Below are positions 4,029-53,034 of a DNA stretch of 64,000 nucleotides, piece after piece. Both the position numbers and the translations under genes were made by a program. The number at the start of each line of letters is the position of its first letter. Position 1 is the stretch's first letter. The stretch is from Candidatus Omnitrophota bacterium. GTDB lineage: Bacteria > Omnitrophota > Gorgyraeia > Duberdicusellales > 4484-171. The notes under the pieces were generated by a model, which saw only the letters and a list, made by a program, of their open reading frames with translations, was not told the DNA's origin and ran no database searches. The stretch spans positions 224,001 through 288,000 of the forward strand of contig JAIPGM010000002.1 in NCBI GenBank assembly GCA_021735655.1, written 5' to 3'.

Positions 4029-4072
4029 TAACAGTTTTGTTGCACAGACTATTTTGATATAATGTAATTTGG

Positions 4073-22312: not shown

Positions 22313-22335
22313 ACCGAATATAGGTTTATTAAGCG

Positions 22336-35119: not shown

Positions 35120-36358
35120 TTAGGGCATCTTACGAATAGCTTCGACCCGTTTCAATACCGGCGGATGACTATAATCCAAAAATACCTTTAATCGATGCGG
35201 GCTTAAATTAGAAAGATTGTTTACAGTGAGCTTTTTAAGCGCCGAGATAAAGGCCTCCGGATTTTGATAGGTCCTTACCGCATAGCGATCAGCTTCATAT
35301 TCATGTTTTCGCGAAAGCAAATTACCGAATATTGAAAAAATAAAACTAATTGGTGTATAAAGGAAGCTAAAGAATATAAGCCCAGCGTAAACTGATATTT
35401 CATCCATTCTAAAAGCATTGAATAGCCCAGGATTTTTTATAAAAAATGAAAGCAGGTAAAACATCAGACCTTTAGTTAATGCTGAGAGTAAAAGACGTTT
35501 TATAATATGTTTCTTTTTATAGTGGCCAACTTCATGTGCTAAAACAGAAACAATTTCTTCAGTAGTGTGTTTTTGAATTAAAGTGTCAAATAAAGCAATC
35601 CGACGAGATTTGCCTAAACCAGTAAAAAAAGCGTTAGACTTACTTGACCGACGCGACCCATCAATTTTAAAAATACCCTTTATCTTGAACTTTTGCGAAT
35701 TAGCATAATCGCTAACCGCCTTTTTAAGCTCCCCATCTTCTAAGGGGGTAAATTTGTTAAAAAGCGGTAAAATTAACACCGGAGCAATAAAAATAAAAAA
35801 AGTACTTAAGAGAACCGTAGCCAACCAACACCAAAGCCAAGCTCCCTGATCGCTAAACTCGACAAAAAGACGTACAATTAAATAGAAAGCCGGACCGGCA
35901 ATAATTACCAACAATATCCAGTTTTTAATTAGATCAGTAATAAAAGTTTTTACGGTAGTTTTATTGAATCCATACTTCTCTTCAATAACAAAGGTCTGAT
36001 AAATAGAAAAAGGTATCTCAATAATTTGAAGTCCGAAAACAATAATTCCGGCAAAAATTAAACCGCTAAACTCAATATTTGAGCTCAAATCTCGGGAGAT
36101 TCGGTCAACTAAATTGAATCCTCCGCTTAGAATAAAAATGATAACAACTGTCGTAAAGACGGTTTTTTGAATAAGACTAAAGTAAGTATTTTCTTTAAGG
36201 TATTTTTGCGAACGACTATAGTCCTCAGGATTATAATAACCTTCAAATTCTGCAGGTAGACTAAAACCAACTGAGGAAATATTTAACATCTCTACGGTCA
36301 CCCGCAAGACATACTCGCCGATTAAAATAGCTAAAATAATAACTAAATAAGGATTCAT
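35120..36358 (-). CDS. M48 family (Ste24/HtpX-like) integral membrane zinc metalloprotease
   Basis: Multiple TM helices are present, together with the HEVGHYKKKH (HExxH) motif and a downstream Glu-containing segment. Confidence 0.75.
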   Translation of the reverse strand: MNPYLVIILAILIGEYVLRVTVEMLNISSVGFSLPAEFEGYYNPEDYSRSQKYLKENTYFSLIQKTVFTTVVIIFILSGGFNLVDRISRDLSSNIEFSGLIFAGIIVFGLQIIEIPFSIYQTFVIEEKYGFNKTTVKTFITDLIKNWILLVIIAGPAFYLIVRLFVEFSDQGAWLWCWLATVLLSTFFIFIAPVLILPLFNKFTPLEDGELKKAVSDYANSQKFKIKGIFKIDGSRRSSKSNAFFTGLGKSRRIALFDTLIQKHTTEEIVSVLAHEVGHYKKKHIIKRLLLSALTKGLMFYLLSFFIKNPGLFNAFRMDEISVYAGLIFFSFLYTPISFIFSIFGNLLSRKHEYEADRYAVRTYQNPEAFISALKKLTVNNLSNLSPHRLKVFLDYSHPPVLKRVEAIRKMP

Positions 36359-36396: not shown

Positions 36397-36590
36397 AAAA
36401 AAACCGACAAGGGCTTCACGGTGTGTCTACCGGCAACTCAGCCACCATCATAGTCTAAGGCTCATACTCGCAAAGTTGGGGAGCGTTGCGTTTTAGGAGA
36501 GCTTGCGAATCATCTCGCCCAAGAACTATCTTAGGTCTGTCAGTTTTGCGCCCCTTACTTTCGTAAGGTTTGCCCTTATCGGCACCTTAA
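36397..36590 (-). ncRNA. Candidate c-di-GMP-I (GEMM) riboswitch with U7-terminated expression platform, upstream of M48 protease gene
   Basis: The minus-strand RNA reads GAUAAGGGCAAACCUUACGAAAGUAAGGGGCGCAAAACUGACAGACCUAAGAUAG. For comparison, the Vc2-type aptamer reads CAGGGCAAACCAUUCGAAAGAGUGGGACGCAAAGCC..GGCCUAAACC. The 3-prime segment GAAGCCCUUGUCGG plus U7 is complementary to the aptamer's 5-prime strand CCGAUAAGGGC. Confidence 0.45.
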
Positions 36591-36649: not shown

Positions 36650-37708
36650 TTACTTTGTCAGATGAACAGTCTGAGTAGGAAAAGCAAATTCAATCTTTTT
36701 CTTCTCAAATTCACCCTTAATGCCCAGGTTTATCTCTTGTTGAATATCCATATATTTATTATAATCACTGCTAAGCACGTAATAGACTACCTCAAAAATA
36801 AGATTAAACTCACCATAAGAAAAGAAATGAGCTCGATCCAAAGTGGCACCCTCAACACCTTCAATTATCTCCCCAATAATCTTAGGTATTTCTTTTAACT
36901 TAGAAAGAGATGTGTCATAAGTAGTACCCAGCTGAAACATCACTCTTCGTTTCTGCATTCGCTTATAATTACGTAAGCGAGAATCCGTCAAATCAGAGTT
37001 AGAAAAAACTAGCTGTTCGCCGCCTAAACTGCGAATTCGAGTAGTTTTAATTCCAATGTTTTCTACTGTTCCCAAAAGATCGCCAACAATAACAAAATCG
37101 CCAACTTCAAAGGGACGGTCAAAAATAATTGAAAAATAACTAAATAAATCCTTTAGAACTGCTTGGGCAGCCAAAGCAATGGCTACACCACCAATACCCA
37201 ACCCGGCAATAACCGTTGATATTTTAAAACCTAAGTTGTCTAAATAGAAAATAATAGCCAGGGCCCAAATAATAAACTTAGTAACCCTCAAAACACCCTC
37301 TAGACTATTCTTTAAAGTTTCACTGCGCCTAGACTTTCGCCAATAAACATCTAAACTATAGGTAATTATACGAATCAATAAACGGACCGTAAAAAAAGTT
37401 ATTAGCGCCATCACTAGAACGCCTAGGCCGCGATTAACCTGTTCACTTAAGGTCAAGGTTTTAAGACTTAAGTAGAAGGCCGCAAGGTAAAAAATCGGAA
37501 TAGCTATTTTCTCAATAATTTCAGCTAAGAAATCATCAATACTAGTAAGCGTCTTTGCAGCTAAACTTCTGAGTTTTTTTAAAATGATGAGCTCGAATAT
37601 CTTTATTACAACACAAGCTAACAGGAATGCACCAATATGAACAATATAATCCTGTAATGAGTTGCCAAGTATAATGTACTCTGAAAATTCTTGCATAGTT
37701 ACCCCCAA
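36650..37708 (-). CDS. Mechanosensitive ion channel family protein (MscS-like)
   Basis: N-terminal TM helices precede an MscS beta-domain region, FEVGDFVIVGDLLGTVENIGIKTTRIRSLGGEQLVFSNSDL. Confidence 0.8.
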   Translation of the reverse strand: MGVTMQEFSEYIILGNSLQDYIVHIGAFLLACVVIKIFELIILKKLRSLAAKTLTSIDDFLAEIIEKIAIPIFYLAAFYLSLKTLTLSEQVNRGLGVLVMALITFFTVRLLIRIITYSLDVYWRKSRRSETLKNSLEGVLRVTKFIIWALAIIFYLDNLGFKISTVIAGLGIGGVAIALAAQAVLKDLFSYFSIIFDRPFEVGDFVIVGDLLGTVENIGIKTTRIRSLGGEQLVFSNSDLTDSRLRNYKRMQKRRVMFQLGTTYDTSLSKLKEIPKIIGEIIEGVEGATLDRAHFFSYGEFNLIFEVVYYVLSSDYNKYMDIQQEINLGIKGEFEKKKIEFAFPTQTVHLTK

Positions 37709-37727: not shown

Positions 37728-38921
37728 TTAATTTTCCGAAATCGAATACCGAACTTTAGATTTTTGTATTTCCAAAGTGCTAGCCAGTTCGGTTTCAGTT
37801 ACAAACCCGAGTTCTTTTAAAATTTCTCCAAGCATAATTCCTCTTTTCCAATGAATTAAAAGAGCTTCATCGAGCTGATTTTGAGAAATTGCCTTTCGTT
37901 CAATTAATATCTGACCTAAAGGTTTATCATTGGTTGTCTTTCGATGATAGATTTCCGGTGTTGCGTCTTTATTTGTTTTGGTGTCACGACGATCAACCAT
38001 AAATTTGCTCTCAGGGATAGTTTTGAGGTAACGCTTTATTTCGGTAACTTTTTCATTAAGCTGAATCATATTTTCGATACCAGAAGTGTACTCTCGATTG
38101 ACTACGGCAATCGAAATTGTCATCAAAGGTGTATTTGTTAATTTACGAGTTCGATCGCGATTAACCACAAAACCTTGGTTGCGATCTATTTCAGAGTAAT
38201 GAAAAGGAATAATCGTATCGAAACTTTTAATAAAATTGTGGCATATTTGTGCGTATTTATCCATGGTGCTGATAAAAACAAAATCATCTCCTCCAATATG
38301 ACCGATAAAATCATCAGAATTTCCGAATTTTTTTACCGCGTCAATTAACAAGTGAGTTGTATGAAGAATTACTCCGTCACCTTTACGGTAGCCATAGACA
38401 TCATTGAAAGATTTAAAATTATCAATATCTAAATAAGCAAATGAAAATGGTTTTCCAGTTTTAAACTTTTCATTTAAGGCATCCTCAAATATTTTAGCAC
38501 CAGGAAGACCAGTTAAGGAACTCGCATAAATACTGTGTTGGGCGCGTCTTGCAGCCATTTCAATTCGAATACGTAAATCAAGCGGGTCTGGTGGTTTTAT
38601 CAAATAATCATCGACTCCTTGCTTTAGACTTAATAATTGAGCGCGTAATTGCCGCTTATTGATTAAAGTTATGACCGGAGTAAAAGCAGTGGCAAAATTT
38701 TCTTTTAAAAGCCGACACATGGCTAATTGTTCTTTACGGGCTGATTGAATATCAATGACTATGACATCAGGGGAAATTCTTTTTATTTTTTCGATATCTT
38801 GCGGTTGAGTAAATTCACGTAGGAAAACTTCGTATCCCCAACCGTCAAAACAAAAGCGCAGAACCTCTTTTAATTGACTATCCGAAGAGATAATTAAAAT
38901 TTTATGTATAGTATCAATCAT
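37728..38921 (-). CDS. Response-regulator receiver, GGDEF-like (GGDDF) domain, and C-terminal T2SSE_N/MshEN-like domain
   Basis: The N-terminus has REC features, and the GGDEF-like site reads IGHIGGDDFVFI. The C-terminus GQILIERKAISQNQLDEALLIHWKRGIMLGEILKELGFVTETELASTLEIQ has the GspE-N/MshEN pattern. Confidence 0.6.
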   Translation of the reverse strand: MIDTIHKILIISSDSQLKEVLRFCFDGWGYEVFLREFTQPQDIEKIKRISPDVIVIDIQSARKEQLAMCRLLKENFATAFTPVITLINKRQLRAQLLSLKQGVDDYLIKPPDPLDLRIRIEMAARRAQHSIYASSLTGLPGAKIFEDALNEKFKTGKPFSFAYLDIDNFKSFNDVYGYRKGDGVILHTTHLLIDAVKKFGNSDDFIGHIGGDDFVFISTMDKYAQICHNFIKSFDTIIPFHYSEIDRNQGFVVNRDRTRKLTNTPLMTISIAVVNREYTSGIENMIQLNEKVTEIKRYLKTIPESKFMVDRRDTKTNKDATPEIYHRKTTNDKPLGQILIERKAISQNQLDEALLIHWKRGIMLGEILKELGFVTETELASTLEIQKSKVRYSISEN

Positions 38922-38929
38922 TTAAACTA

Positions 38930-41900
38930 TTATACCACTTTCTTCTGTTCCTCAATTATTTTTTGGGCTATTTCCTTTGGTACCTGGGTGTACTTTTTAA
39001 AATGCATTGAGCAACTTGCCCGGCCACTAGATAAAGACCTAAGATTGGTTACGTAACCAAACATTTCCGAAAGTGGAGCCTCAGCCGAAATTAGCTTTTG
39101 GTTACCTTTTGAATCCATACCTAAAATTTTCCCCCGACGCGCACAAAGATAACCAACAATACCACTAGTATGCTCTTCTGGAGTAAGTACTTCCAAGCTC
39201 ATGCAAGGCTCAAGAAGAACCGGACTCGCTTTTAAAAAAGCGTTTTTAAAGCAAGTTCTTGCAGCAATTTTAAACGCTAACTCTGAAGAATCAACTTCAT
39301 GGTATGAACCATCAACGAGCTTTACCTTAACATCGACCACCGGATAACCGGCATAAGAACCTTTTTTCATTGCTTCAATAATACCTTTCTCAACTGCCGG
39401 TATATAGTTTTTAGGTATTGCTCCACCTTTAATGCTATCTTTAAATTCAAAACCAGCAGCTTCTTCATTAGGAGAAAGCTCAATCGCTACGTGGCCGTAT
39501 TGGCCTCTGCCTCCGCTTTGCTTAGCATGTTTATACTCTTCGCTAGTAGACTGAAGGATTGTTTCTTTATAGGCAACTTTAGGCTGACCGGCCTGCGCTG
39601 AAACCTTAAATTCTTCCTTCAAACGTTCAACGATTATTTCAAGATGTAATTCTCCCATACCAGAAAGAATTGTTTCAGAGGTTTCCTCGTCGGTATGAGC
39701 GTTAAAAGTGGGGTCTTCTTCTGCTAGTTTAGCTAAACCCTTGGCCATCCTATCCTGATCGGAACGACTCTCCGGTTTTATGCTGATTGAAACGACTGGC
39801 TCAGAAAATTCAATTGACTCAAGTAATATTGGATTTTGAATGTCAGAGAGTGTATCGCCGGTTAAAGTGGAACTGAGACCGACAATTGCCGCAATATCAC
39901 CGGCAAACACTGCGTCAACATTTTCTCGTTGGTTAGCATGCATTCGAACAATTCTCCCGATACGCTCTTTTTTATTTTTAGTTGCATTTAAAACATAAGT
40001 TCCGGCCCTTAAGCATCCCGAATAGATTCGAGCATAGATCAATTTACCTACATGCTGGTCAGCTTGGACCTTAAAAGCAAGCGCTGAAAAAAATTCATCA
40101 TCTTGAGGCTTACGTTCCAAGCTTTTTTCTTTATCATCGGGGTCAGAACCAATAACTGGCGGAATTTCAGCCGGAGAAGGTAGATAGGCAACAACTGCAT
40201 CAAGCAAGTCTTGAACACCCTTATTTTTTAATGCTGACCCGCAAAAAACCGGAACAATCTTATTTGAAACTGTAGCTTTGCGCAAAGCCTCAGTCAGATC
40301 GTCTTTGCTGATTGACTCCTCTGACTGTAAGTATTTTTCCATTAATTTACCATCATAAGAGGCTACCCGATCAACCAAACTATGGCGGTATCTTTGAGCG
40401 ATTTCTTTATAGCTTTCATGAATATCTTCCGACCTAATATCTTTGCCTAAGGATTCGTCATTATAAAGATGCATTTTCATATTAATAAGATCAATTATGC
40501 CTTTAAAGTCACCTTCCTTACCGATCGGTATCTGTAAGGCAACTGGTTTAGCCCCAATAGTATTTTCGATCTCTTCTAAAACCTTAAAAAAATCAGCCCC
40601 GACCCGATCCATTTTATTTATAAAGGCTATCTTCGGTACATGATATTTATCCGATTGGCGCCATACGGTTTCAGTTTGAGACTCTACTCCTCCCACCGCA
40701 CAAAATACAGCAACTGCCCCATCTAGGACCCTTAACGATCTTTCAACTTCAGCGGTAAAATCAACGTGGCCGGGGGTATCAATAATAGTAATTTGGCAAT
40801 CTTTCCAACTACAAGTGGTTGCAGCTGAAGTTATAGTTATACCTCTTTCCTGTTCTTGTTTCATCCAATCCATCTGAGCTGCCCCGTCATGAACTTCGCC
40901 GATTTTGTGCGACCGGCCGGTATAGAAAAGAACTCTTTCAGTAAGAGTAGTTTTCCCAGCATCAATATGGGCCATAATCCCAATATTACGGATCTTGCCC
41001 AGTTCTATTTTTCTCTCCGGCAGTGGCTCCTCTACTTTTTTTACTGCTTCAGGCTTAGGCTCGGCTTGTATTTCTGGTTCTTGAGCCGATAGCTCCGGAG
41101 TCACTTCTTCACTTGCGGTTTCAGGTTGCCCTTGGGTCAAATCTTTAGTTTCACCTTCCTGCCCTTGGATTAAAGATTCGTCTTCCTTTAGCGATTCTTT
41201 ATCTGAAGGTAACTCTTCAAATTCCTTAGTTTCTGAAATAGGTTCACTTGGCTGCGCCTGAACTAACTCATTCTCAAGATTGGAAGATTCTTTTTGAGAA
41301 TCACCGTCCTCAATTAAAAGAATATCTGCTAACTCATCGTCCTTAATAACGCCGCTTCGTTTAATCTCGCGTAATTTATTAAGAATACGAATCCGCTCCT
41401 GATCAATTTTTTCGATATCTTTACCTTTTAGCTCCAACTCCTTAGATTTAATCTCTAACTCATTTTTTAATTCTTCACTTTGTTCTTCTAAAAGAGAGTA
41501 CTCTTCTTTAGATACCCATTCGCTTTGACGTTGTTTTTCTTTCATTTGAGCAACTTCAGCAGCATGTGCGACAGTTTCTTTAGATAGCTGGTGCATTCTT
41601 TGAGTCTGATCTTTTAGCTCACTTTCCAAAGAAATAATCTTATCTTTCAATTGATTGATATTGACTTCACGAATTTTGATTACTTCTTCAGCTTGATCAA
41701 GTTCTTTTTTAAACTGCACACTCCGGGAAAACTCTTTCTCTAAATCCTTTTCCTTAGTAATCAATTTAACTCTCAAAGCCTCATAGGGACCTTTTCCTTT
41801 TTTCAAAGTAAGCTGCTGACTATTAAGCCATTTTTTATTGCGGTTAATTTCCTCGCCCAATTCTTTAGCCTTGAGGCTAAGCTTTTGATGCTCATCTTGC

Positions 41901-42139
41901 AAGCTGAGATACTCAGCCTGAGTTTTTGTTAAGGCGACAATTTCATTTTTTAATTTTGTTAGTTCCCTTTTTGAAGATTTAAGGTTTTCTGACAAGGCAG
42001 AAATTTTTTGTTGTTGCAAGTCAGGCTTAAGGCCAAACTTTGTACCCAGAGTACCTTTTAAAACTGAATCATCTTCGTTGTTAACTAAATACAGTACTAG
42101 GGCAATCGATACTCCAATTACAACAAAAATTAAAGTCAT
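38930..42139 (-). CDS. Elongation factor G paralog with ~370-aa N-terminal extension (TM helix, coiled coil, acidic linker)
   Basis: Residues ~375-1069 form a complete EF-G: [15 protein letters not shown] (G1), DTPGHVDF (G3, catalytic His retained), NKMD (G4), a G-prime insert, and domains II-V. The N-terminus [19 protein letters not shown] is hydrophobic. Residues ~40-260 are heptad-rich and K/E-rich, and residues 270-370 form an E/P/Q-rich linker. No ATG/GTG/TTG lies near the junction. Confidence 0.8.
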
Positions 42140-42658: not shown

Positions 42659-42982
42659 TTACCACTCTCCAGACCATTCAACATCGCCACTTTTGCCTAT
42701 GTCTTGAAAAAGCTCCTGAATGAATTCAATAATTGGATGAGTGTTTTTTTGAGCGGCCTTTTTAATTAGATTTTCTAAACGTTGAGGTTTTTCTATTTCC
42801 TCACTAACTTTATCAAAATTAAAATCAACTTCCTTGTCAAAATAGTTTTCTAGATCTTTCATGAAAATTTTTGAATTGTAGTTTTGACGATAATCAGCTA
42901 ACCTAGTTATTTTCTCAGCTCTTTGACGACGAAAAGATTCAAGTCTAGGATCCTCTTTTTCGGGCCTTTTTGAATCACTCAT
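42659..42982 (-). CDS. Hypothetical protein
   Basis: Only the ORF itself is seen. Confidence 0.3.
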   Translation of the reverse strand: MSDSKRPEKEDPRLESFRRQRAEKITRLADYRQNYNSKIFMKDLENYFDKEVDFNFDKVSEEIEKPQRLENLIKKAAQKNTHPIIEFIQELFQDIGKSGDVEWSGEW

Positions 42983-42990
42983 CTTAAATT

Positions 42991-43617
42991 TTAAGGGTTA
43001 ATCTTGTCACGATTCCAAGAATGCCAAGTCCGTTGTTGGTTTTCAATTTTCCAAGAACCATCTTTTTGCTTAACAACTGAAAGATAAATCCCGGCTCCAG
43101 TAGAGCGATTCCATTGATTAGCGACATGCAAGATAGCACGAGTTCTTTGACGGTTAAAACCTACCCGAGAAAGAGTTAAAATTCCTCCTGAACTAGGATA
43201 ACGGTCATAATAACTATCCCAGTGAGGATTATGATCAAAAATATAGTCAATTTCTTTTTGACTAATAATAATGTAATCGACCCGTTGATTTATAAAGCTC
43301 TCTAAAGAATAAGTCCTTACATTCTTGGCCTTAAAATCATTAATAATTTCATCTTCTAGGACAGGCATTTGCTGTCTAACGTAGTCTAGCTCAGTTTCAA
43401 TCGGTCTGCCTAATTGGTAAACGCTGGTATGATCTCGAATCAATATCTCTTTATTTTGCTCATTTGAATACCACTCGTCAACCACCGTTGAGTAAATTAA
43501 ATACTCATCCAGTTCAAAGCCATATTCATTAATACCTAAGGCATTACCTTGGGGTAAAATGATTAAGCAGACAATCACTATGAAGATATAGCGCTTGATT
43601 TCCATTAAAAATATCAC
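42991..43617 (-). CDS. Hypothetical secreted protein
   Basis: An N-terminal signal-like hydrophobic segment is present. Confidence 0.35.
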   Translation of the reverse strand: MIFLMEIKRYIFIVIVCLIILPQGNALGINEYGFELDEYLIYSTVVDEWYSNEQNKEILIRDHTSVYQLGRPIETELDYVRQQMPVLEDEIINDFKAKNVRTYSLESFINQRVDYIIISQKEIDYIFDHNPHWDSYYDRYPSSGGILTLSRVGFNRQRTRAILHVANQWNRSTGAGIYLSVVKQKDGSWKIENQQRTWHSWNRDKINP

Positions 43618-43639: not shown

Positions 43640-43873
43640 TTACATCAAAGTTACTGCTTCTTGAATGAATGGTAAGATTGCTTCAGCTTCTTCTTTAGAA
43701 ACTCTTCCTAAACGGGTAAGCCTAAAGTCACCGTTTGAATCCCGATTTTCGCGGGTAATTTGCAACTTCTTAGCACCTTTGTTGTAAGAAAATACCCCGA
43801 CTGTGACTTTTGTTGTTTCTGATTCCCAAGATTTAGAAAAAATCTTCTCGTCTAAATTGCTATCGTATGGCAT
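43640..43873 (-). CDS. Small protein, possibly PC4/YdbC-like ssDNA-binding fold
   Basis: KVTVGVFSYNKGAKKLQITRENRDSNGDFRLTRLGRVSKEEAEAIL resembles bacterial PC4-like proteins. The match is weak. Confidence 0.25.
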   Translation of the reverse strand: MPYDSNLDEKIFSKSWESETTKVTVGVFSYNKGAKKLQITRENRDSNGDFRLTRLGRVSKEEAEAILPFIQEAVTLM

Positions 43874-43922: not shown

Positions 43923-44642
43923 CTATTCCTGTGCCGAATGAGTTGTATGTTTTTCAACAAAAAGTACTATTTTTTCTTGAATTTCAGGATTTATGTCATT
44001 AAATTCAAGCCCCATACCGGGAAAATCTTCCGGCTGTATCTCTTGGTCAGAAATCCAGACTATTTTAGCATCAACTTCAAGTGTACCTGGTTCAGGAATT
44101 AGGTGTATTCGAGTATGTAATAAATCACCCATTGAAAATAATTTTTGGGCAGCTACAAAAACTCCATCCCCGCTTAAATTGATAATTTTTCCGCTATAGA
44201 ACTCATCTTGACTAGAAAACTTCTGTCGGTATTCAATACTGGAGTTAAACGGTATTCGTTTAAAGCGTCGACGAAACTGACTGTCTGATGACTCAATGAT
44301 ATTCTTTTCTTCCTTAATCTTCTTTATCGCATGATCTTCGGTAACATGATATTCAAAGATTCGATCTAAACCTACGATTGAAAATAATTTCATTACATGG
44401 GAGGGAACATTGCATAGCTTCATTGCTCCCTGATGATTCGATACATTTTTATAAATTACGGCAATAAGTGATATGCCTACATAATCAATTAAATTAACAC
44501 CTTCAAAATTACAAATGACGTTCTTGGATTTATTACTAAGAACCCAGCCAACAGTTTCAACAAAATTAGAGGCATTGATATCAATATTCCCTTCTAGGTC
44601 CAAAATGGCCATGCCCTCTTTTTCACGAATATCTATCTTCAT
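43923..44642 (-). CDS. STAS (anti-sigma-factor antagonist-like) domain fused to C-terminal PilZ domain
   Basis: The N-terminus MKIDIREKEGMAILDLEGNIDINASNFVETV is SpoIIAA-like. The C-terminus RRRFKRIPFNSSIEY...GDGVFV carries PilZ motifs. Confidence 0.55.
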   Translation of the reverse strand: MKIDIREKEGMAILDLEGNIDINASNFVETVGWVLSNKSKNVICNFEGVNLIDYVGISLIAVIYKNVSNHQGAMKLCNVPSHVMKLFSIVGLDRIFEYHVTEDHAIKKIKEEKNIIESSDSQFRRRFKRIPFNSSIEYRQKFSSQDEFYSGKIINLSGDGVFVAAQKLFSMGDLLHTRIHLIPEPGTLEVDAKIVWISDQEIQPEDFPGMGLEFNDINPEIQEKIVLFVEKHTTHSAQE

Positions 44643-44686: not shown

Positions 44687-45421
44687 TTAGACAATTATGC
44701 TCAGAATTGCTACTAAAATACAGTAATAACCAAAAATAGCAAATTTCTCAGATTTTAGCACTTTTTTGACTATTTTCAAAGCTAAAAATCCTGAAGCAAA
44801 TGCGGCCACAAAACCTCCACTAGCAGCCAAAATTGACATATTTAAGTCGGGTAGCTCCTTCATTTTTAGCAAAAATGCCCCTAAGGTAACTGGGATCATC
44901 ATTAAAAACGAGGTCGTAAACGCCTCTTTTGGTTTAAAACCCCTACCGATCAATCCAACGATAGTAATCCCTGAACGAGATATCCCTGGAAATATAGCTA
45001 AGCCCTGCAATAACCCGATAAATAATGATTCTTTTGTGGTAACAGTATCATAATTTCGCTGTCCGAAAACTTTTTTCATACTAAGCAAAATTAGACCATT
45101 TATGATGAGAAGTAAACCAATCCAAAGTTTATTTTCAAAAAAACCAACTAAAAAAGTGTTAATAGCTAGGCCAATTATTGCAGTAACTAGGGTAGTTATC
45201 CCTAATTGAATCAAAATCCTTCTTTTAGACAAAACTGACAATATGTCTCGACGTAAAAAAATAACGACTGCCAACAAAGTTGCTAAATGAAGAAGAACAA
45301 AGAAAGGAAGTAAATTTTGGCTAAAAGACAAAAGTCTTTTTATGATATAAAGATGTCCGGAGCTACTTATTGGAAGGAATTCAGTTAATCCTTGAGTAAT
45401 GCCCAAAGCTATGGTTTTCAC
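44687..45421 (-). CDS. uppP: Undecaprenyl-diphosphatase
   Basis: ITQGLTEFLPISSSGHL matches the UppP/BacA signature. Confidence 0.85.
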   Translation of the reverse strand: MKTIALGITQGLTEFLPISSSGHLYIIKRLLSFSQNLLPFFVLLHLATLLAVVIFLRRDILSVLSKRRILIQLGITTLVTAIIGLAINTFLVGFFENKLWIGLLLIINGLILLSMKKVFGQRNYDTVTTKESLFIGLLQGLAIFPGISRSGITIVGLIGRGFKPKEAFTTSFLMMIPVTLGAFLLKMKELPDLNMSILAASGGFVAAFASGFLALKIVKKVLKSEKFAIFGYYCILVAILSIIV

Positions 45422-45425
45422 TAAA

Positions 45426-46121
45426 TTAACCCTTTAAAAGAAGATAAAGCAAAGCGCCAAAAATAATTATACCAATAGCCAGTATGGTATATTCAAGAAT
45501 CCCTGCCTTGCTTTTATTAAGTGGGATATCATCTAACACAAATTCCTCTTCAGGTTCGCTAACCGGTGTTTTTTTCGGCTCTGGCTCCGGTTCTGGTTCT
45601 GGCTCGGGAAGAATTTCCTCTTTTTCTGGTTCGGCCAAAGTTTCAGCGGGAACTGGCTCAATATTTTCGGAAGGCTTTCCTTGATTAGACTCTGGTTCCA
45701 AAGAAGCCAAGGCCTCTTCGGTTTTTTCAGGAACAATTTCAGTTATCTCCTCAGAAACAACTGGCGTTTCTTTAATTTCTGGCTCTGGTTCTATAGCTGG
45801 TATCTCTGAAGAAATATCAGCTGCACCAGGCACATATTCCATATCCTCTCTTGGCTCAACCGGCAAAGCCGGTTCAGGAGCTAACTCTGGTTGAATCTCT
45901 GGAACTTCTTTTTCAACTGAAGGTGTTATTACTGGCTCTGGCTGAGCTTCTTCTGATTTTACCGATTCTTCGTCAATAGCCAACTTATCCATGAGTTCGC
46001 CTAAAGTACTCCGACAATCATGGCAAACACAAAGATGCTCTTCAACATTTTTTATTTCATCTTCATTCGCAGTGTGATTAAAATATTTAGGAATTATAAT
46101 TTTAATTTCTTCGCAGTCCAT
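45426..46121 (-). CDS. zf-HC2 anti-sigma-factor-like protein with Glu/Pro-rich linker and C-terminal TM anchor
   Basis: N-terminal C..(x)..HLCVCHDC is an H-x3-C-x2-C zinc motif. A PEPEPEPEPEP repeat and a terminal hydrophobic helix ILAIGIIIFGALLYLLL follow. Confidence 0.5.
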   Translation of the reverse strand: MDCEEIKIIIPKYFNHTANEDEIKNVEEHLCVCHDCRSTLGELMDKLAIDEESVKSEEAQPEPVITPSVEKEVPEIQPELAPEPALPVEPREDMEYVPGAADISSEIPAIEPEPEIKETPVVSEEITEIVPEKTEEALASLEPESNQGKPSENIEPVPAETLAEPEKEEILPEPEPEPEPEPKKTPVSEPEEEFVLDDIPLNKSKAGILEYTILAIGIIIFGALLYLLLKG

Positions 46122-46230
46122 ACAGCCTCTCCTTTTTTTAAGGATATATGATTTTGTAATATTATAGCATAGAGAGACCCTATCGCAAGAAAATATTTTA
46201 ACCAGAGAGGTTATTTAACTTAAAATAGCC

Positions 46231-48201
46231 CTAAAAGCTTACTTTACAACCGGCAAAGAAGTTTCTTTCTGGAGAAGGATAAAGTCCTCGCGTGGTACCG
46301 GTAAGATTAGTTGCAGCGTACTCACTGTAAAGTTCGTTAAATAAATTATTAACACCGGCAAAAAGCTCTAACTTTTTTCCGGTATAACTTAATTTTATAT
46401 TAGTTGTGTTGTAACTTTTTAACTTAGGGCTGATATTATTAAGATCATTAATTAAATAAACTTTATCTCGATAAAGATAATCAGCAAAAAATGAAAAGCG
46501 TTCAAAAAAATCATATTTTACCGAAGCTGTAAGCATAGCCTTAGGAACGAAAGGAACTTCCTTTCCAGCGTAAACACCGCCACGGAATTTCGCATCGATA
46601 AAGCGATAGCCGAGAGTAAACTTTGTATTGTCAAATGGGGTAAGGGTTGTAGTGAGATTCGCACCTTGACGACGAATTTTACTATAATTTTCGTTAGCGA
46701 ACGTCCCTGGGTTGTAGTATATTTCGTTATTAACATTCATTTGAAAATAATCCAAAGATGTGGTTAAAAAGTCAGTTAAACGCATATTGGCCCCCAAACT
46801 TATAGTTTTAGAACGTTGTGGTTTTAAATTTGTATTAATTGCTGCAGCCGGCCAAGTAACTAAGTATTCATCGGTCTTACCGACCCTCAAACCTCGCGAA
46901 AAATTAAGATAAATATTACTTTCGTTATCGATTTTATAGTTAAGTCCAGTTTCATACAAGCCTTCTCGAAAATTCAATCCATCATCAGTGCTTGTAGAAC
47001 CAAAATAATCAAAAGTAAACTTTTCTTTTTGCACCCTAGCCCCTAAATGCCCAGCAAGTTTTTCATTAAAGCTAATTTCATCCTGTAAAAACCAAGCTAG
47101 GCTCTGTCGATCAATGTCAGTAGCCGCGCTTGAGGTATCAGCTGATAAATCCGAACTATAAAATTCAAATCCGGCAATTAGCTCTTGTTGAATTCCTCTA
47201 GTATCAAAAGACAATAATAGTTGTGGCCGCGCTTGAAAATTAGTTATATGTTTGTCAGTAGACATGCTATAAGAAAGTAAATCCTCCAACTCATTTCGGT
47301 TACGATAAAATAAATCAACTGAAGCAATCAGCTCAGGTGAAAACTCGTTTTTAATAGTTAAGCCTAAAGTATTATCCTCTCGTTGATAGTTATTTAAAGG
47401 AGTTGTTGAGTCACGACGTGAAGTTCCAGCTAACCGTTCAGCTTCGGTTATATCATCTGGCAATCCATAGATATATTCGTGATGAGTCAAGTCAGCACTT
47501 ATCTCTAACTGTTCGGTAGGCCTAGAGTTTAGTTCTATTGAGCTGTATTTTGAGCGGTAATGACTATTTTGACGATAACCACTTGTTGAATGGTACTCAG
47601 AAAATGTGCGAAACGATAAAAGGTCTTCTCCACCTGAGGCTGAAATAGACTCTTTGGTCGAGCGGTAACTTCCGGCTTCAAAGTTAACTTCAACTGAAAG
47701 ATCCTTAGCTTGAGGATCTTTTGAAATAATATTAACTATTCCTCCGGCAGCACCCTCTCCATACAGGACAACTCCGCCACCCCGGATTACTTCTATTCGT
47801 TCAACATTTTTTAAGGGCAACTCAGTCCAGTTAACTCCGCTCATATCGATTTCATTAATTTTTCGACCATTCACTAAAACCAGCATGTTTGATGCAGCAT
47901 TATCACCAAAACCCATCATATCAACAGTTGTCTTAACGTTAGTTCCGTAATAATCGCTGACGTGTAACGACGGAACATTTCTTAAGAAATCAATTACTGT
48001 GCTTGATCCGCTAGCCTTGATATGTTTCTCGGTATATACTTTGGTCGCATAAGGAGTTTCAGAAATTGTTGTTTCTTCTACTCCGGCATAAGGAGTTACT
48101 ACTATTTGCTCTAAATCTATTTGTCCTTGCGCCAACAAAGGACTTAATGATCCAAATTGAATAGTCAAAAATAATATTAAAAATACAAAACACCTTTTCA
48201 T
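46231..48201 (-). CDS. TonB-dependent outer-membrane receptor (BtuB-like)
   Basis: A signal peptide MKRCFVFLILFLTIQFG is followed by plug and barrel domains, and the protein ends with a terminal Phe. The start was corrected to the ATG at 48199-48201, preceded by the RBS aaaggaggggg. The track start at 48267 lies inside the riboswitch terminator. Confidence 0.8.
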   Translation of the reverse strand: MKRCFVFLILFLTIQFGSLSPLLAQGQIDLEQIVVTPYAGVEETTISETPYATKVYTEKHIKASGSSTVIDFLRNVPSLHVSDYYGTNVKTTVDMMGFGDNAASNMLVLVNGRKINEIDMSGVNWTELPLKNVERIEVIRGGGVVLYGEGAAGGIVNIISKDPQAKDLSVEVNFEAGSYRSTKESISASGGEDLLSFRTFSEYHSTSGYRQNSHYRSKYSSIELNSRPTEQLEISADLTHHEYIYGLPDDITEAERLAGTSRRDSTTPLNNYQREDNTLGLTIKNEFSPELIASVDLFYRNRNELEDLLSYSMSTDKHITNFQARPQLLLSFDTRGIQQELIAGFEFYSSDLSADTSSAATDIDRQSLAWFLQDEISFNEKLAGHLGARVQKEKFTFDYFGSTSTDDGLNFREGLYETGLNYKIDNESNIYLNFSRGLRVGKTDEYLVTWPAAAINTNLKPQRSKTISLGANMRLTDFLTTSLDYFQMNVNNEIYYNPGTFANENYSKIRRQGANLTTTLTPFDNTKFTLGYRFIDAKFRGGVYAGKEVPFVPKAMLTASVKYDFFERFSFFADYLYRDKVYLINDLNNISPKLKSYNTTNIKLSYTGKKLELFAGVNNLFNELYSEYAATNLTGTTRGLYPSPERNFFAGCKVSF

Positions 48202-48239
48202 ACTACCCCCTCCTTTAAAACTAATCTTAAAATAAAAAA

Positions 48240-48545
48240 ACCCTATACCTTCTGGTATAGGGTGCACCCTGATTTACTTGGCCCTAAAATAAAAAAATTC
48301 AGGTAATGTTTCCACGCAAAACCTAAACTTTGCTTCTTACGGCAGGTCTTCTGACTTCCCTACATCTTTTAGCTACCTTCCCACCTGCATTTTAAAACAG
48401 ATAGTGGTTTAAATCGCTAAAAGGGCCCTAAAATTATCTCTAGGGGTCGGGATCACAGCACCGGGAGTGTCTCCGATTCTCACGGAGTTCCCTATTAAGC
48501 TCCTTTTGAGCACCGTAAAATTAGCTACTTTTATACAAAGAACAT
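48240..48545 (-). promoter_or_regulatory. Cobalamin (B12) riboswitch with intrinsic-terminator expression platform
   Basis: The minus-strand RNA reads UUAAUAGGGAACUCCGUGAGAAUCGGAGACACUCCCGGUGCUGUGAUCCC ... GGUGGGAAGG ... AGUCAGAAGACCUGCC, where the last element is the B12 box (plus 48341-48356). The terminator CCCUAUACC-AGAA-GGUAUAGGG plus U7 follows (plus 48232-48263). Confidence 0.85.
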
Positions 48546-48720
48546 CTGTATTATAACTTACAACTTTAACCTGTCAACATAAATAGCTCTTCATTTTCGC
48601 TAATTTCAAGGCTTTAATTTTACTGAAACTACTTTCAGCAAAGTTAAAAACTACCTTGAAATATGCATATAAATATGTTATATTTTCCTGAATCGCTAAT
48701 ATATTTAAATAGCAATAACT

Positions 48721-48892: not shown

Positions 48893-48965
48893 TGCCCCCA
48901 TCCCGACTCGAACGGGAATTTCAGCCTTAGGAGGGCCGCGCTCTATCCTGTTGAGCTATAGGGGC
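48893..48965 (-). tRNA. tRNA-Arg (anticodon CCT)
   Basis: The minus-strand cloverleaf reads acceptor gccccta/tgggggc, D-arm gctcaacaggatagagc, anticodon stem cggcc/ggctg with loop ctCCTaa, and T-arm cccg-ttcgagt-cggg. Confidence 0.85.
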
Positions 48966-48974: not shown

Positions 48975-49487
48975 TTAGTATTTGATGAGGGAATAAACTG
49001 GATAGTCTATAATCTTGTCTTTACCTTTAAGGCCAACAAGCTCGATTAAAAAAGCAATACCAACAATCTCGGCCTTGAGTTCTTTTGCTAGATTAACCAT
49101 AGCATTAGCAGTTCCGCCAATTGCCAGTAAATCGTCTAGGATTAAGACCTTAGCTCCTTCAGGGAAAGCATCCTTGTGAATTTCTAAGGAGTCCTCTCCG
49201 TACTCTAAAGCATAAGTATGACTATGAGTCTCAGCCGGAAGCTTTCCCGGTTTTCTGACCGGGACAAAACCACAACCTAATTTATAAGCCAATGCTCCAC
49301 CAAAAATAAAACCGCGAGATTCAGCAGCCACAATATAGTCAAACTGAAGATCTTTAAGTAATTCTGCCAATTGATCAATCGCCAATCTAAAAGCCTCTTT
49401 ATTATTCAATAATGTAGTAATGTCACGAAACAAAATACCTTTCCTAGGGAAGTCAGGAATAGCCCTTATGTATTTGCTAAGTTCCAT
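48975..49487 (-). CDS. apt: Adenine phosphoribosyltransferase
   Basis: VLILDDLLAIGGTANAMV matches the PRPP-binding motif. Confidence 0.85.
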   Translation of the reverse strand: MELSKYIRAIPDFPRKGILFRDITTLLNNKEAFRLAIDQLAELLKDLQFDYIVAAESRGFIFGGALAYKLGCGFVPVRKPGKLPAETHSHTYALEYGEDSLEIHKDAFPEGAKVLILDDLLAIGGTANAMVNLAKELKAEIVGIAFLIELVGLKGKDKIIDYPVYSLIKY

Positions 49488-50305
49488 TACTCTACCTCCC
49501 TTTTTCGCTCTTCTTGAGTATACTTACGTAATTTCTTTAAAGCTTCTTGCTCGATTTGTCTTACTCGTTCTCGAGATACATTTAAAACACTCGCCACCTC
49601 GGCTAAAGTATGCGGTCGACCATCAGTTATTCCAAAGCGTAGATCAAGCACCGACTTCTCACGGTCACCAATCGAAGTAAGTAGCTGCTTGACTCTTTCT
49701 TTAGTAAAAGCCATCTCAACGTTAGCTTCGGTGTCGGCATATTCGCTACTCTCGATAAAATCACTTAATTGTGATTCGCCTTCGCTTCCTACCGGGGCCT
49801 CAAGCGAGGATTTTTTCTGAGACCAAAGTTCAATCTCAGAAATTTTATCAACTTTCATCTTTAGCTTTTTAGAAAGCTCAAGTCTAGTTGGTTCGCGACC
49901 ATTTTTTTGACGTAACTGCTCGCAAGCTTTCTTATACTTTGATTGTAGCTCACTCATATATACCGGAATGCGAATAGTTTTACCTTGATCGATTAAAGAT
50001 CTCGTTACGGCTTGGCGTATCCACCAAGCAGCGTAAGTTGAAAAGCGGTAGCCTCTGCGAGTATCGAATTTGTCGATCGCCCGCATAAGACCAATATTTC
50101 CTTCAGCAATTAAATCCATCAAGGTGAGATTAAAGTGACTGTAGTGTTTAGAAATATTTACCACTAATTTTAAATTACAATTAATTACTTTACGACGAGC
50201 ATCTCGGCTGCCTTTTTTTGCCTTTTGAATTAAATCTATCTCTTCTTTTTTAGTAAGCAGCGGTAGATCTTTGATTCTTTCTAAATAGGCTTTAATTGCG
50301 TCCAT
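49487..50305 (-). CDS. RNA polymerase sigma factor, sigma-70 (RpoD/SigA-like) family, compact form
   Basis: Region 2 DLIAEGNIGLMRAIDKFDTRRGYRFSTYAAWWIRQAV, TIRIPVYM, and the region 4 HTH HTLAEVASVLNVSRERVRQIEQEALKKLR are all present. Confidence 0.8.
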   Translation of the reverse strand: MDAIKAYLERIKDLPLLTKKEEIDLIQKAKKGSRDARRKVINCNLKLVVNISKHYSHFNLTLMDLIAEGNIGLMRAIDKFDTRRGYRFSTYAAWWIRQAVTRSLIDQGKTIRIPVYMSELQSKYKKACEQLRQKNGREPTRLELSKKLKMKVDKISEIELWSQKKSSLEAPVGSEGESQLSDFIESSEYADTEANVEMAFTKERVKQLLTSIGDREKSVLDLRFGITDGRPHTLAEVASVLNVSRERVRQIEQEALKKLRKYTQEERKREVE

Positions 50306-50313: not shown

Positions 50314-53034
50314 TTACTTTTTAGATTTAGTTTTCTTTTTTTGTCCGTTTTCCATTATTACTGCTTGAGCAGCAGCCAATTTGGCAATCGGCACTCGGTA
50401 AGGAGAGCAACTAACATAATTTAATCCGGCCTTGTGACAAAACTTAACTGACTCAGAATCTCCGCCATGCTCTCCACAAATACCACATTTGAGCTTCTCA
50501 TTGGTTGTTCGGCCTAAGCGTACTGCAGTTTTTACAAGTTGCCCGACACCTTCTTGATCAATTGTTTGAAAAGGATCATCAGGTAAAATTTTCTTTTCGA
50601 TGTATTCCGGAAGAAAAACTCCGGCATCATCGCGACTGTACCCGAAAGTCATCTGAGTAAGGTCATTTGTACCAAAAGAGAAAAATTCAGCTTTTTTGGC
50701 AACTCGGTCAGCAGTTAATGCTGCCCGAGGAATTTCAATCATTGTCCCAACCATATACTTTACCTTAGATTGCGATTTAGCAAGAACTTCCTCAGCAGTC
50801 TTACGAACGATTTCTTCTAAATATTCAAATTCATTAGTTGTTCCAATAAGTGGGATCATGATTTCCGGAAGAACTTTTACCCCTTTCTTGGCCATGTTAC
50901 AAGCAGCTTCGATAATCGCTGTTGTTTGCATAACACAAAGTTCAGGATAAGTAATTGATAACCGACAACCACGATGACCAAGCATCGGATTTAACTCGTG
51001 TAATTTTTTAACCAACTCATTTACTTTTGCTGGTGTAATATCCAAGCGTTTTGCCATTTCCTTTTGCCCGGCCTCATCATTAGGTAAAAATTCATGTAAT
51101 GGCGGATCAAGAAGTCGAATTGTTACCGGCAGACCATTCATCTCTTTAAAAATCCCTTCAAAGTCTTTTCTTTGAAAGGGAAGTAATTTCTTGAGTGCTG
51201 CCTCTCGGCCTTTCAAATCTTGAGCTAAAATAAACTCGCGCACAGCCCAAATTCTTTCTCCCTCAAAAAACATATGTTCGGTCCGGGTAAGCCCAATGCC
51301 TTCGGCGCCCAATTTCCGAGCTGCCGCTGAGTCTTTAGGGGTATCAGCATTGGTTCGAACATTAAGCTTTCGATATTGATCAGCCCAAGCCATTACCTGA
51401 ACAAACATTTTGTAAATCGGGCTCTTTTTAGCAATTGGATTGTTCTCAACAACTCCGGCGATTACTGGACTCACCGTAGCTGTTACATCTCCGAGCATAA
51501 CTTCTCCGGTTGATCCGTCCAAGGAAAGACAATCACCCTCGTTAATTATAATATTGCCAACTGATATTTGTTTTTTAGCGTAGTTAATATTTAAAGCGCT
51601 ACATCCAGCAATACAACATTTACCCCAACCTCTAGCAACTACAGCTGCATGGGAAGTCATTCCACCGGTTGAAGTCAATATTCCTTCGGCAGCATGCATT
51701 CCAGCCACATCTTCAGGAGAAGTTTCGTGACGGACAAGTATAACCTTTTTTCCTTTTTTCTTCCAAGCTTCGGCATCTTCAGCGGTAAATACGACTGATC
51801 CGGAAGCAGCCCCTGGTCCAGCCGGAAGGCCTTTAGCCACTCTTTGAGCTTTATTTTTAGCTGCGGGCTCAAAGATTGGAAAAAGAAGCTGATTGAGTTG
51901 GTCACCCTCAATCCGCATGATTGCTTCTTTCGGTGTAATCATTTTTTCTTGTACCATATCATAGGCAATCTTAACTGCCGCAAGCCCAGTACGCTTTCCA
52001 GTACGAGTCTGAAGCATAAATAGTCTGCCTTCCTGTATGGTGAATTCTACATCTTGTATATCTTTGTAGTGTTGTTCGAGTTTTTCCTTAATCGCATAAA
52101 GTTGTTTGTAAATTTTCGGCATTTCTGTTTTAAGGTCCTCTATCGGCTCAGGGGTTCTTATTCCAGCAACCACATCTTCACCTTGAGCATTAATAAGAAA
52201 CTCGCCAAAGAATTTCTTTTCTCCATTTGAAGGATTACGAGTAAAAGCCACTCCAGTTCCCGAAGTATTACCCATATTTCCAAAAACCATAGCTTGAACA
52301 TTAACTGCTGTTCCCAAGAGTCCGGTGATTTTATTTATTCTTCGATAAATTACGGCTCGCTCAATATTCCAGGAAGCAAATACGGCATTAACTGCCGCCA
52401 TTAATTGATCTTTTGCGTCAGTTGGAAATGCCTTCTTTACATGTTTTTTATACACATCTTTATACTCCGCAACCAACTCTTTAAGCTGTGCGGCGGTAAG
52501 ATCATTGTCCTGCTTTGCTTTATATTTTTTCTTAATCAAGGTTAGTTTTTCTTCAAAATGTTCATGGTCAACACCCATAACTACATTTCCAAACATATCA
52601 ATAAAACGTCGGTAAGCATCCCAAGCAAGACGTTCGTTACCAGTTTTCTTTGCTAGACCGATTACCGCAGCATCATTTAAGCCTAGATTAAGAACTGTAT
52701 CCATCATTCCCGGCATTGAAACCGCGGCACCGCTGCGTACTGAAACTAACAAAGGGTTATTAGAATCACCCAATTTTGCCTGCATGCTTTTTTCTAAATT
52801 GCTAATGTTAGCATCGATTTGTCTTTGCAAATCAGCTGGATATTTTTTTCCGTGTTTATTATAATAGTCGCAAACTTCAGTCGAAATCGTAAACCCCGGC
52901 GGCACCGGTACTCCGATGCTACACATTTCAGCCAAATTTGCACCTTTTCCACCAAGAATATTCTTCATTTTTGCATTACCATCAGATTTTTCCTTGCTGA
53001 AAAAATATACGTACTTTTTCTTCTTGTCAGCCAT
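50314..53034 (-). CDS. ppdK: Pyruvate, phosphate dikinase
   Basis: The catalytic His motif [22 protein letters not shown] is present in a 906-aa protein with PEP-utilising C-terminal domain. Confidence 0.9.

Follow-up and report, generated by a model that had tools for sequence, protein, structure and literature searches.

We report that, in a 64-kb window of DNA (the window being the whole stretch analysed) from a Candidatus Omnitrophota metagenome-assembled genome (MAG), a gene for a TonB-dependent receptor and the zf-HC2 zinc-finger gene directly behind it most probably belong to two transcription units. The first would be a corrinoid-repressed unit made up of a cobalamin riboswitch and the receptor gene, the second a separate operon led by the zf-HC2 gene, and the two appear to be neighbours through inherited gene order; we put the probability of this reading at roughly 80%. 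An earlier note on the same DNA had instead described an unusual pairing of a riboswitch-controlled transporter with an orphan anti-sigma module. Every feature of the riboswitch, the receptor and the zf-HC2 gene lies on the minus strand, and coordinates are collected in Table 1. A homologue search found the nearest relatives of the receptor in Omnitrophota MAGs. Our comparisons used eight orthologous leaders (those of the window, L001, L002 and L005-L009), a set of 12 related leaders obtained by adding four metagenome leaders (L024, L093, L119 and L127), and 12 distinct loci with a member of the zf-HC2 family, ten of which are of a long-linker subfamily and the others short-form.

A full-length cobalamin riboswitch precedes the receptor gene

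The Rfam model RF00174 matched 48532..48324 (-) over its full length (1-189), with a score of 81.7 bits against a gathering score of 31.5 and an E value of 1.5e-18. This bears out the earlier note, which had read a cobalamin riboswitch on the minus strand, and the parts it had picked out are all legible there, namely the core AAUAGGGAA, the GUGAGAAUC loop and the B12 box AGUCAGAAGACCUGCC. The L5 loop, UCCCG, is the consensus for L5 (PMC10327014); it is invariant across the eight orthologues, and the P5 stem covaries (CAC/GUG, CUG/CAG, CUC/GAG). In the window, a sigma-70 promoter with 12 of 12 hexamer matches stands 18 nt 5' of the aptamer, and comparable promoters (9-12 of 12 matches) are found 18-23 nt 5' of it in L001, L002, L008 and L009. 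The same riboswitch precedes the orthologous receptor genes in L002 and L005-L009, and it precedes btuFCD and the receptor gene in L001. From these sequence features we infer that the aptamer binds corrinoids and that gene expression responds to this binding.

In four relatives, a gene for a DUF6580 (PF20221) membrane protein of 160-170 residues ends inside the aptamer or within a few nt of its 5' end, so that the riboswitch of those relatives is either intercistronic or served by a promoter inside the DUF6580 gene. No DUF6580 gene was found in the window, and searches of NCBIfam and of solved structures returned no relative of the protein.

The expression platform points to transcriptional control

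Between the aptamer and the gene, all eight orthologous leaders contain the same parts in the same order: a first hairpin (hairpin 1), a short element that we call box 1, an invariant box 2 and an intrinsic terminator. Each of the 12 related leaders has the terminator, at -12 to -28 kcal/mol and with a U-run after it, and its stems fall into at least four sequence types, with two compensating types among the orthologues. In the window the stem has 10 bp and an energy of -16.1 kcal/mol; the earlier note had correctly seen a terminator with a U7 tract and had counted its stem one pair short, at 9 bp. As the terminator lies ~25 nt 5' of the ribosome-binding site (RBS) and leaves the RBS free, control is likely to be transcriptional, and these features support transcription termination as the read-out of the riboswitch. 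The btuB riboswitch differs in this respect, since it is described as modulating an RBS hairpin and so acting on translation (PMC10327014).

Hairpin 1 was recognised by folding and by its conserved loop. RNAalifold found no pairs in it because indels shift the stems out of register, and we therefore folded each sequence separately against shuffled flanks; the fold was significant in 11 of the 12 related leaders (z from -2.5 to -5.8), with stem sequences that differ from one another. Its apical loop, CGUGGAA in the window (48316..48310), always reads CG(N)GGAA, and the CG(N)GGA part pairs with L5 if the variable base is bulged, as in the window, where the loop complements UCCCG with one bulged base. 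A bulged L13 base is known from env8HyCbl, and mutations in a repressing transcriptional switch have shown that P13 is stabilised when L5 docks with L13 (PMC10327014). We identify hairpin 1 as P13 since its loop complements L5 and since both the L5 sequence and the pairing with a bulged base agree with that work (PMC10327014). The L5-L13 kissing contact itself is a prediction, because both loops are invariant and covariation cannot prove that they touch.

The candidate antiterminator consists of box 1 and the base of the terminator 5' arm. Across the 12 leaders, the mean contiguous run between these two strands is 4.9 bp, compared with 3.8 for cross-pairs and 3.7 for shuffles, and a run of at least 5 bp is reached in 58% versus 20% of cases. 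The pairs covary: UAGGG:CCCUA, UAUAGG:CCUAUA, GAGGG:CCCUC, UCGGG:CCCGA, UGGACGGG:CCCGUUCG, UUGGG:CCCGA and CGGG:CCCG. The loop that this pairing would enclose carries an invariant AAG.AA...CAGGGUGCA, and the 11-nt core of box 2, AGGGUGCACCC, is invariant in the eight orthologous leaders and present in the four further ones; the C preceding the core is U in L001. Box 2 (CAGGGUGCACCC) lies within the candidate antiterminator loop and holds a perfect 10-nt palindrome (GGGTGCACCC), which might make a tertiary contact in the RNA, compete for L5 or, as DNA, serve as an operator for a protein. A metagenome scan with the box-2 pattern gave ~120 matches, mostly chance occurrences in coding sequence, and only four of them were real leaders.

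We propose that the consensus promoter at 48577..48550 drives the riboswitch leader and that, when the aptamer is loaded with a corrinoid, L5 (UCCCG) would dock with the loop of hairpin 1 (P13, CG(N)GGA). After docking, the 10-bp terminator (48263..48240) would form and transcription would end before the RBS; with ligand absent, the antiterminator formed by box 1 (UAGGG) and CCCUA of the terminator 5' arm would permit read-through. That the docking of P13 is transmitted to the antiterminator is a further step that we infer.

The U-run behind hairpin 1, which reaches at least 6 nt in nine of the 12 leaders, suggests another course of events, in which the ligand would stabilise P13 as a terminator that uses this U-run, and the second hairpin would serve as a fail-safe or as a separately controlled attenuator. 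Hairpin 1 is weak and AU-rich, so that stabilisation by a kissing loop could be decisive, and P13 does not overlap the terminator arms. In a variant of this idea, boxes 1 and 2 would compete with L13 for L5, which would suit the six of 12 leaders whose box 1, CGGG(A), complements L5 perfectly or almost so. However, L001, L002 and L127 lack the U-run and keep the rest of the platform, a strong second terminator that acted constitutively would abolish expression, and box 1 covaries with the terminator arm rather than with the invariant L5. We consider these alternatives possible but doubtful, and we favour competition between the box 1 antiterminator and the second hairpin.

Other pairings were tried and rejected. 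A model of the Priestia megaterium type, in which a P13 strand pairs with a terminator arm, was set aside because no complementarity exceeded that of cross-sequence controls, for either strand or either arm. The aptamer P3 strand UAGGGAA can pair with the terminator arm in the window, but no covariation was seen by eye in the orthologues. Minimum free energy (MFE) folds of nascent transcripts gave antiterminator partners that differ by orthologue, and these folds were not used as evidence.

The leader resembles that of P. megaterium metE (PMC10327014) in its RF00174 aptamer, its UCCCG L5, a P13 hairpin directly after P1 with a loop that complements L5, competition between an antiterminator and an intrinsic terminator, and B12-related regulated genes; in the bulged base of its L13 pairing it resembles env8HyCbl (PMC10327014). 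It differs from metE in that box 1 lies after P13 and the U-run and not on the 3' side of P13, that P13 showed no complementarity to the terminator, that the antiterminator loop contains the invariant palindromic box GGGUGCACCC, and that hairpin 1 usually has its own U-run.

The receptor gene starts behind the terminator

The reading frame of the receptor is open from GTG 48267, which gives a 678-residue open reading frame (ORF), and the public gene call (Logan) has the same 678-residue form. It is well supported by sequence comparison that the start is instead ATG 48201, as the earlier note had proposed, and that the extension of 22 residues is an artefact of ORF calling. The GTG lies inside the invariant box 2, and in the seven other orthologues the gene is called 3' of the terminator, where it begins with Met-Lys, a hydrophobic signal sequence and a TonB-box region of the form (I/L)xLExI(V/I)VTP; an AGGAGG-type RBS occupies the equivalent place in seven of the eight orthologous leaders. 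On these grounds we take 48201 to be the true start. Reading the first 22 residues of the long form, MHPIPEGIGFFYFKISFKGGGS, confirmed the further claim that they are the translated terminator and RBS, and the strong RBS that had been described (AAGGAGG, 48215..48209) indeed stands before the Met of the signal peptide.

If translation were initiated at GTG 48267, the 22 residues would belong to the precursor, as the open frame and the choice of the public gene caller might suggest. We regard the chance of this as next to negligible: the GTG is part of an RNA box that is invariant across 12 leaders irrespective of frame, no Shine-Dalgarno sequence with usable spacing precedes it, and a terminated transcript could not encode the protein. 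Four of the seven orthologues (L001, L002, L007 and L008) have no in-frame upstream start of any kind, and hydropathy shows a signal peptide, with its charged MKR and its hydrophobic core, only from residue 23 of the long form, Met23. The receptor start is due for re-annotation to 48201, and gene callers blind to riboswitch terminators would err likewise wherever a conserved RNA box holds an in-frame GTG.

The receptor is most likely a corrinoid importer

The product of the riboswitch unit would be a 656-residue TonB-dependent receptor that is read from ATG 48201 and most likely imports corrinoids across the outer membrane. Pfam matches to Plug (PF07715, 76 bits) and TonB_dep_Rec_b-barrel (PF00593, 136 bits) support its class, the TonB-box region IDLEQIVVTPY is conserved among the orthologues, and the signal peptide was judged from sequence and hydropathy. 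With a plug that begins at residue 46, the receptor lacks an N-terminal STN extension. Its best NCBIfam match, a siderophore-receptor subfamily, fell under the cut-off.

We assign the substrate from context, that is, from the riboswitch and from the neighbours of related receptors. The genes btuF, btuC and btuD adjoin the receptor loci in L001, L002 and L011; in L010 the neighbours are cobT/cobS, and in L012 they are cbi genes. In the window itself btuFCD was not found, and a TonB homologue is encoded at 4058..4702 (+), with 79 bits to the TonB of L136. The arrangement resembles that of Escherichia coli BtuB, a plug-and-barrel TonB-dependent receptor directly behind a cobalamin riboswitch, with btuFCD adjoining in close relatives.

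A gene for a PF01902 protein (Dph6-like PP-loop ATP pyrophosphatase) recurs within the B12 loci of relatives, and in L010 and L011 it stands next to a radical-SAM/SPASM gene. It may have an uncharacterised corrinoid-related function.

The zf-HC2 gene probably belongs to a separate operon

The zf-HC2 gene has a promoter of its own, of the extended -10 type, in the gap behind the receptor gene. This promoter is conserved in 11 of the 12 loci, comprising all ten long-form loci and L133. In the long forms it follows the pattern TTGyrA, 16-17 nt, TGnTAnAAT and is separated from the ATG by 8-40 nt, except in L007, where the distance is 118 nt; the -35 element overlaps the stop codon of the upstream gene in two loci, L005 and L012. 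The uppP gene, whose GTG is only 4 nt past the zf-HC2 stop in the window and is for that reason placed in the same operon, lies within 4 nt of the zf-HC2 gene or overlaps it in ten of ten long-linker loci. In seven of these ten, uppP is followed by a gene for a STAS-PilZ fusion and then by a conserved 77-residue gene, and STAS-PilZ is next to or near zf-HC2 in nine of the 12 distinct loci, including both short-form contexts. The second unit would therefore start at its own promoter (46188..46161) and encode the zf-HC2 protein, UppP and STAS-PilZ, with no functional tie to B12.

The conserved 77-residue protein (MPYDSNLDE..., 43640..43873, -) is conserved in the ten long-linker zf-HC2 loci but not in L133-L136, and neither Pfam nor NCBIfam gave a match to it. 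Behind its gene lie unannotated genes for proteins of ~200 residues (42991..43617, -) and ~100 residues (42659..42982, -).

The gene on the 5' side of zf-HC2 varies. It is the receptor gene in most loci, the PF01902 PP-loop gene in L005 and L007, and in L012 a cbi methyltransferase gene that closes a cobalamin biosynthesis operon. The short-form loci L133-L135 have the order PPDK, sigma-70, apt, tRNA, promoter, zf-HC2 and STAS/PilZ, with no riboswitch, B12 gene or uppP, so that in L133 the zf-HC2 promoter and gene come directly after the tRNA; a further short-form locus, L136, reads rpsU, zf-HC2, STAS/PilZ, again with neither a riboswitch nor a B12 gene. Conversely, L001 has a receptor orthologue of 61% identity in the order riboswitch, btuFCD, receptor, tRNA, hrcA, grpE, dnaK, and no zf-HC2 gene. 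The window shares the backbone of PPDK, sigma-70, apt and tRNA-Arg, with the B12 unit inserted between the tRNA gene and the zf-HC2 promoter. As the backbone is identical in relatives that have no B12 unit, we interpret the adjacency of receptor and zf-HC2 genes as inherited gene order around a variable B12 locus.

These results speak against a pairing in the sense of the earlier note, which had overlooked the promoter in the gap, the leader promoter, hairpin 1 with its U-run, and a non-ECF (extracytoplasmic function) sigma-70 gene upstream. We nevertheless weighed whether the riboswitch, the receptor and the zf-HC2 gene could form one module in which a co-transcribed anti-sigma-like protein relays the state of the receptor to a distant sigma factor. 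The two genes are on the same strand with a gap of 109 nt, no clear terminator follows the receptor gene, and a B12-related gene is directly 5' of zf-HC2 in all ten long-form loci. Yet zf-HC2 has its own conserved promoter, its upstream neighbour changes (receptor, PP-loop gene or cbi methylase), the receptor lacks an STN domain and the zf-HC2 protein any periplasmic part with which to contact it, the L001 receptor occurs without zf-HC2, and the short-form relatives keep the backbone without B12 genes. We judge such a module very unlikely.

Several observations weigh against our own reading of two unrelated units with a corrinoid importer in the first. There is no convincing terminator 3' of the receptor gene in the window, so that B12-dependent read-through into zf-HC2 and uppP is possible, and the same-strand B12-related gene directly 5' of zf-HC2 is as consistent across the ten long-linker loci as the link to uppP. 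In the leader, the antiterminator spans only 4-8 bp, no complementarity between P13 and the terminator arm links the two, and the MFE folds of nascent transcripts disagree among orthologues. Finally, the receptor scores far under the cut-offs of the BtuB equivalogs (101.6 versus 599.7 bits for TIGR01779, 73.9 versus 836 for NF007926), and for this reason we file it as a riboswitch-associated TonB-dependent receptor and not as BtuB; among solved structures it is closest to YncD and PqqU, and its similarity to BtuB is confined to the plug (~51 bits).

In the FecA/FecR/FecI system, the receptor carries an STN domain, the anti-sigma factor has a FecR-type periplasmic domain, and an ECF sigma gene is adjacent. 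The locus described here has in common with it a TonB-dependent receptor gene beside a gene for an anti-sigma-like membrane protein. It differs in having no STN domain, no FecR or periplasmic domain, no ECF sigma gene that we could find, and separate promoters. Signalling of the FecA/FecR type is excluded by a receptor without an N-terminal signalling domain together with a zf-HC2 protein without a periplasmic domain.

In the window, where it is tRNA-Arg(CCT), and in every relative examined for it (L006-L009 and L133), a tRNA gene bounds the variable B12 locus on the left. To the right of the tRNA, the content ranges from nothing (L133) to a riboswitch and receptor, in some cases with a DUF6580 gene (L006-L009). 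In L010-L012, where the stretch ends short of the tRNA, cobT-cobS-radical SAM, btuFCD or cbi genes lie upstream of zf-HC2. This suggests that the B12 locus beside the tRNA is a recombination hot spot.

The zf-HC2 protein defines a small tail-anchored family

The earlier note had described a tail-anchored zf-HC2 protein with an (EP)n linker, and this description held: the protein matches PF13490 at 24.1 bits (cut-off 22.2), as do all 18 family members tested at scores that pass, it contains PEPEPEPEPEP, and its C-terminal hydrophobic helix ends 2 residues before the stop. In an alignment of 23 sequences, C3, H29, C33 and C36 are invariant and give the motif C-x25-H-x3-C-x2-C; C31 and H34 are invariant as well, and the C-terminal helix is conserved, ending ...YLLLKG. 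The AlphaFold model has helices at 3-13, 20-29 and 34-50, disorder from 54 to ~200, and a confident transmembrane (TM) helix at 203-230, so that the zinc finger amounts to residues 1-50 with three helices. The linker is disordered and acidic (40-320 residues, 25-37% Asp plus Glu, 6-24% Pro), with a pI of 4.1-4.5 for the whole protein. It is absent in forms of ~90 residues, to which many relatives belong, with the same finger and C-terminal helix and a short connection between them. Amid the otherwise unalignable linker of the long forms stands a near-invariant E-Y-(F/V/I)-P-G (residues 94-99, ~45825..45842, -), which may be a short linear binding motif.

An exhaustive profile search of 1.84 billion representative proteins found 168 relatives. 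The family profile reached classical zf-HC2 proteins with a central TM helix at E values of 1e-5 to 1e-4; among PDB sequences it aligned exactly on the motif with the anti-sigma domain of ChrR, at a sub-threshold E value of 0.44, and a Foldseek search of the AlphaFold model against the PDB gave no match. We file the protein, by its sequence, as a tail-anchored variant of the zf-HC2 family without a sensor or external domain.

RsrA and RslA are zinc-binding anti-sigma (ZAS, zf-HC2) factors, a class marked by the motif (C/H)-x23-26-H-x3-C-x2-C. The protein resembles ZAS anti-sigma factors such as ChrR in its N-terminal helical domain, its H-x3-C-x2-C motif with a Cys 25 residues earlier, and its predicted cytoplasmic, membrane-tethered position. 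Unlike them, it has ~50 ordered residues, as against about 80-90 residues and four helices for a complete domain, it is tail-anchored with 2 residues past the TM helix and no sensor domain, and it has no co-transcribed sigma gene, its partner genes being uppP and STAS-PilZ.

No sigma gene was present in the zf-HC2 operon at any of the 12 loci. The nearest sigma factor is RpoD/RpoS-like, of group 1/2 type with regions 1.2-4 and not ECF, and is encoded two or more genes upstream; no second ORF of the sigma-70 family was found in the window. The earlier note had stated that no ECF sigma gene is adjacent, and a scan of the genes between 43 and 50 kb showed none. A phmmer search with an approximate E. 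coli RpoE query likewise returned no ECF sigma in the window, with a sensitivity so low that it missed the window's own sigma-70. No gene for a HATPase_c anti-sigma kinase occurs in the conserved operon at any locus, and STAS, fused to PilZ, is present; we therefore rejected membership in a STAS partner-switching module with a kinase-type anti-sigma factor.

On balance we lean modestly towards anti-sigma activity of the protein. Nearly as plausible is that it is a membrane-tethered finger with another role, for example as partner or anchor of a STAS-PilZ receptor for cyclic di-GMP (c-di-GMP) or as an accessory of UppP. Its ordered part, with three helices, falls short of a full anti-sigma domain, its operon contains no sigma gene, the recurring neighbour is STAS-PilZ, the ChrR match is sub-threshold and the fold search was empty. 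Anti-sigma activity is favoured by the passing of PF13490 in all 18 members, by the invariant C-x25-H-x3-C-x2-C, by the reach of the profile to classical zf-HC2 proteins, and by a sigma-70 family gene two genes upstream in the ancestral arrangement.

A bolder idea, which we rate as improbable, is that the mini zf-HC2 protein and STAS-PilZ form an undescribed membrane-tethered partner switch that responds to c-di-GMP, with the finger holding a sigma factor at the membrane, perhaps the 272-residue RpoD/RpoS-like one. Release could come through c-di-GMP-loaded STAS-PilZ, or through oxidation or zinc loss. If this were true, uppP would have been gained in one Omnitrophota lineage, tying the operon to envelope lipid-carrier recycling, and the B12 riboswitch unit would remain an insertion with no relation to it. 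Literature searches gave no direct precedent for tail-anchored zf-HC2 anti-sigma factors, for STAS-PilZ modules or their pairing, or for cobalamin in Omnitrophota.

Other features of the window

A c-di-GMP-I riboswitch (RF01051, 60.8 bits) lies directly 5' of a gene for an M48-family (HtpX/Ste24-like) membrane peptidase (35120..36358, -), and just upstream of it are an MscS-type channel gene (36650..37708) and a GGDEF response regulator gene (37728..38921). L005 likewise has a c-di-GMP-I riboswitch (2326..2439, -). A second STAS-like ORF (22333..22698, +) scores 25.6 bits to the STAS-PilZ protein. The 1069-residue ORF at 38930..42139 (-) stands where relatives encode an EF-G/RF3-type protein of 1018-1064 residues, a match of position only; the proteins of the relatives have the domains GTP_EFTU, EFG_III, EFG_IV and EFG_C and are ~350 residues longer than standard EF-G.

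Table 1. Coordinates of the features discussed, in the window unless a related locus is named
Feature	Coordinates	Strand	Remarks
Sigma-70 promoter of the riboswitch leader	48550..48577	-	TTGACA, 16 nt, TATAAT
Cobalamin riboswitch aptamer	48324..48532	-	RF00174; L5 loop UCCCG; B12 box AGUCAGAAGACCUGCC
Hairpin 1, candidate P13	48294..48331	-	folding and conserved loop
U-run after hairpin 1	48297..48286	-	U7-A-U4
Box 1, candidate antiterminator 5' strand	48282..48286	-	UAGGG; pairs with CCCUA 48262..48258
Box 2, invariant	48260..48271	-	CAGGGUGCACCC; contains GTG 48267..48265
Box 2 in relatives	same position		L001, L002, L005-L009, L024, L093, L119, L127
Intrinsic terminator	48229..48263	-	stem ACCCUAUACC/GGUAUAGGGU, loop AGAA (48263..48240), then U7-A-U4
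RBS	48209..48215	-	AAGGAGG, 7 nt 5' of ATG 48201
TonB-dependent receptor gene	46231..48201	-	656 residues; signal peptide MKRCFVFLILFLTIQFGSLSPLLA, then QG; TonB-box region IDLEQIVVTPY; plug; barrel
Promoter of the zf-HC2 operon	46161..46188	-	TTGCGA, 16 nt, TGcTATAAT; extended -10
zf-HC2 gene	45426..46121	-	231 residues, tail-anchored
uppP/bacA (undecaprenyl-diphosphatase)	44687..45421	-	GTG start 4 nt after zf-HC2 stop
STAS-PilZ fusion gene	43923..44642	-	recurrent partner of the zf-HC2 family
PPDK gene	53034..50314	-	backbone gene
Sigma-70 gene	50305..49487	-	272 residues; non-ECF; 3.4 kb upstream
apt	49487..48975	-	backbone gene
tRNA-Arg(CCT)	48893..48965	-	B12 unit lies between it and the zf-HC2 promoter
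c-di-GMP-I riboswitch	36429..36584	-	RF01051; 71-nt insertion in second stem-loop
DUF6580 gene, L003	5245..5724
DUF6580 gene, L005	2595..3101
DUF6580 gene, L006	3134..3640
DUF6580 gene, L007	2416..2922
PF01902 gene, L005	5320..5961
PF01902 gene, L007	5119..5790
PF01902 gene, L010	3127..3816
PF01902 gene, L011	457..1128

Significance

The riboswitch-receptor unit is well formed and of a known type, and it leaves current concepts unchanged. What remains of interest is the coupling step of the expression platform and the small zf-HC2/STAS-PilZ family. For the former, the 12 leaders form a clean natural data set, in which the L5/L13 pair and a palindromic box are invariant while antiterminator and terminator covary, in a platform that departs from the overlap of P13 and antiterminator demonstrated for P. 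megaterium metE. For the latter, our comparison delimits a compact family of zinc-finger proteins that are tail-anchored and as yet uncharacterised. In Omnitrophota, the loci together describe a variable B12 locus, with genes for uptake or for biosynthesis, flanked on one side by a tRNA-Arg gene and on the other by a conserved operon for envelope and signalling functions.

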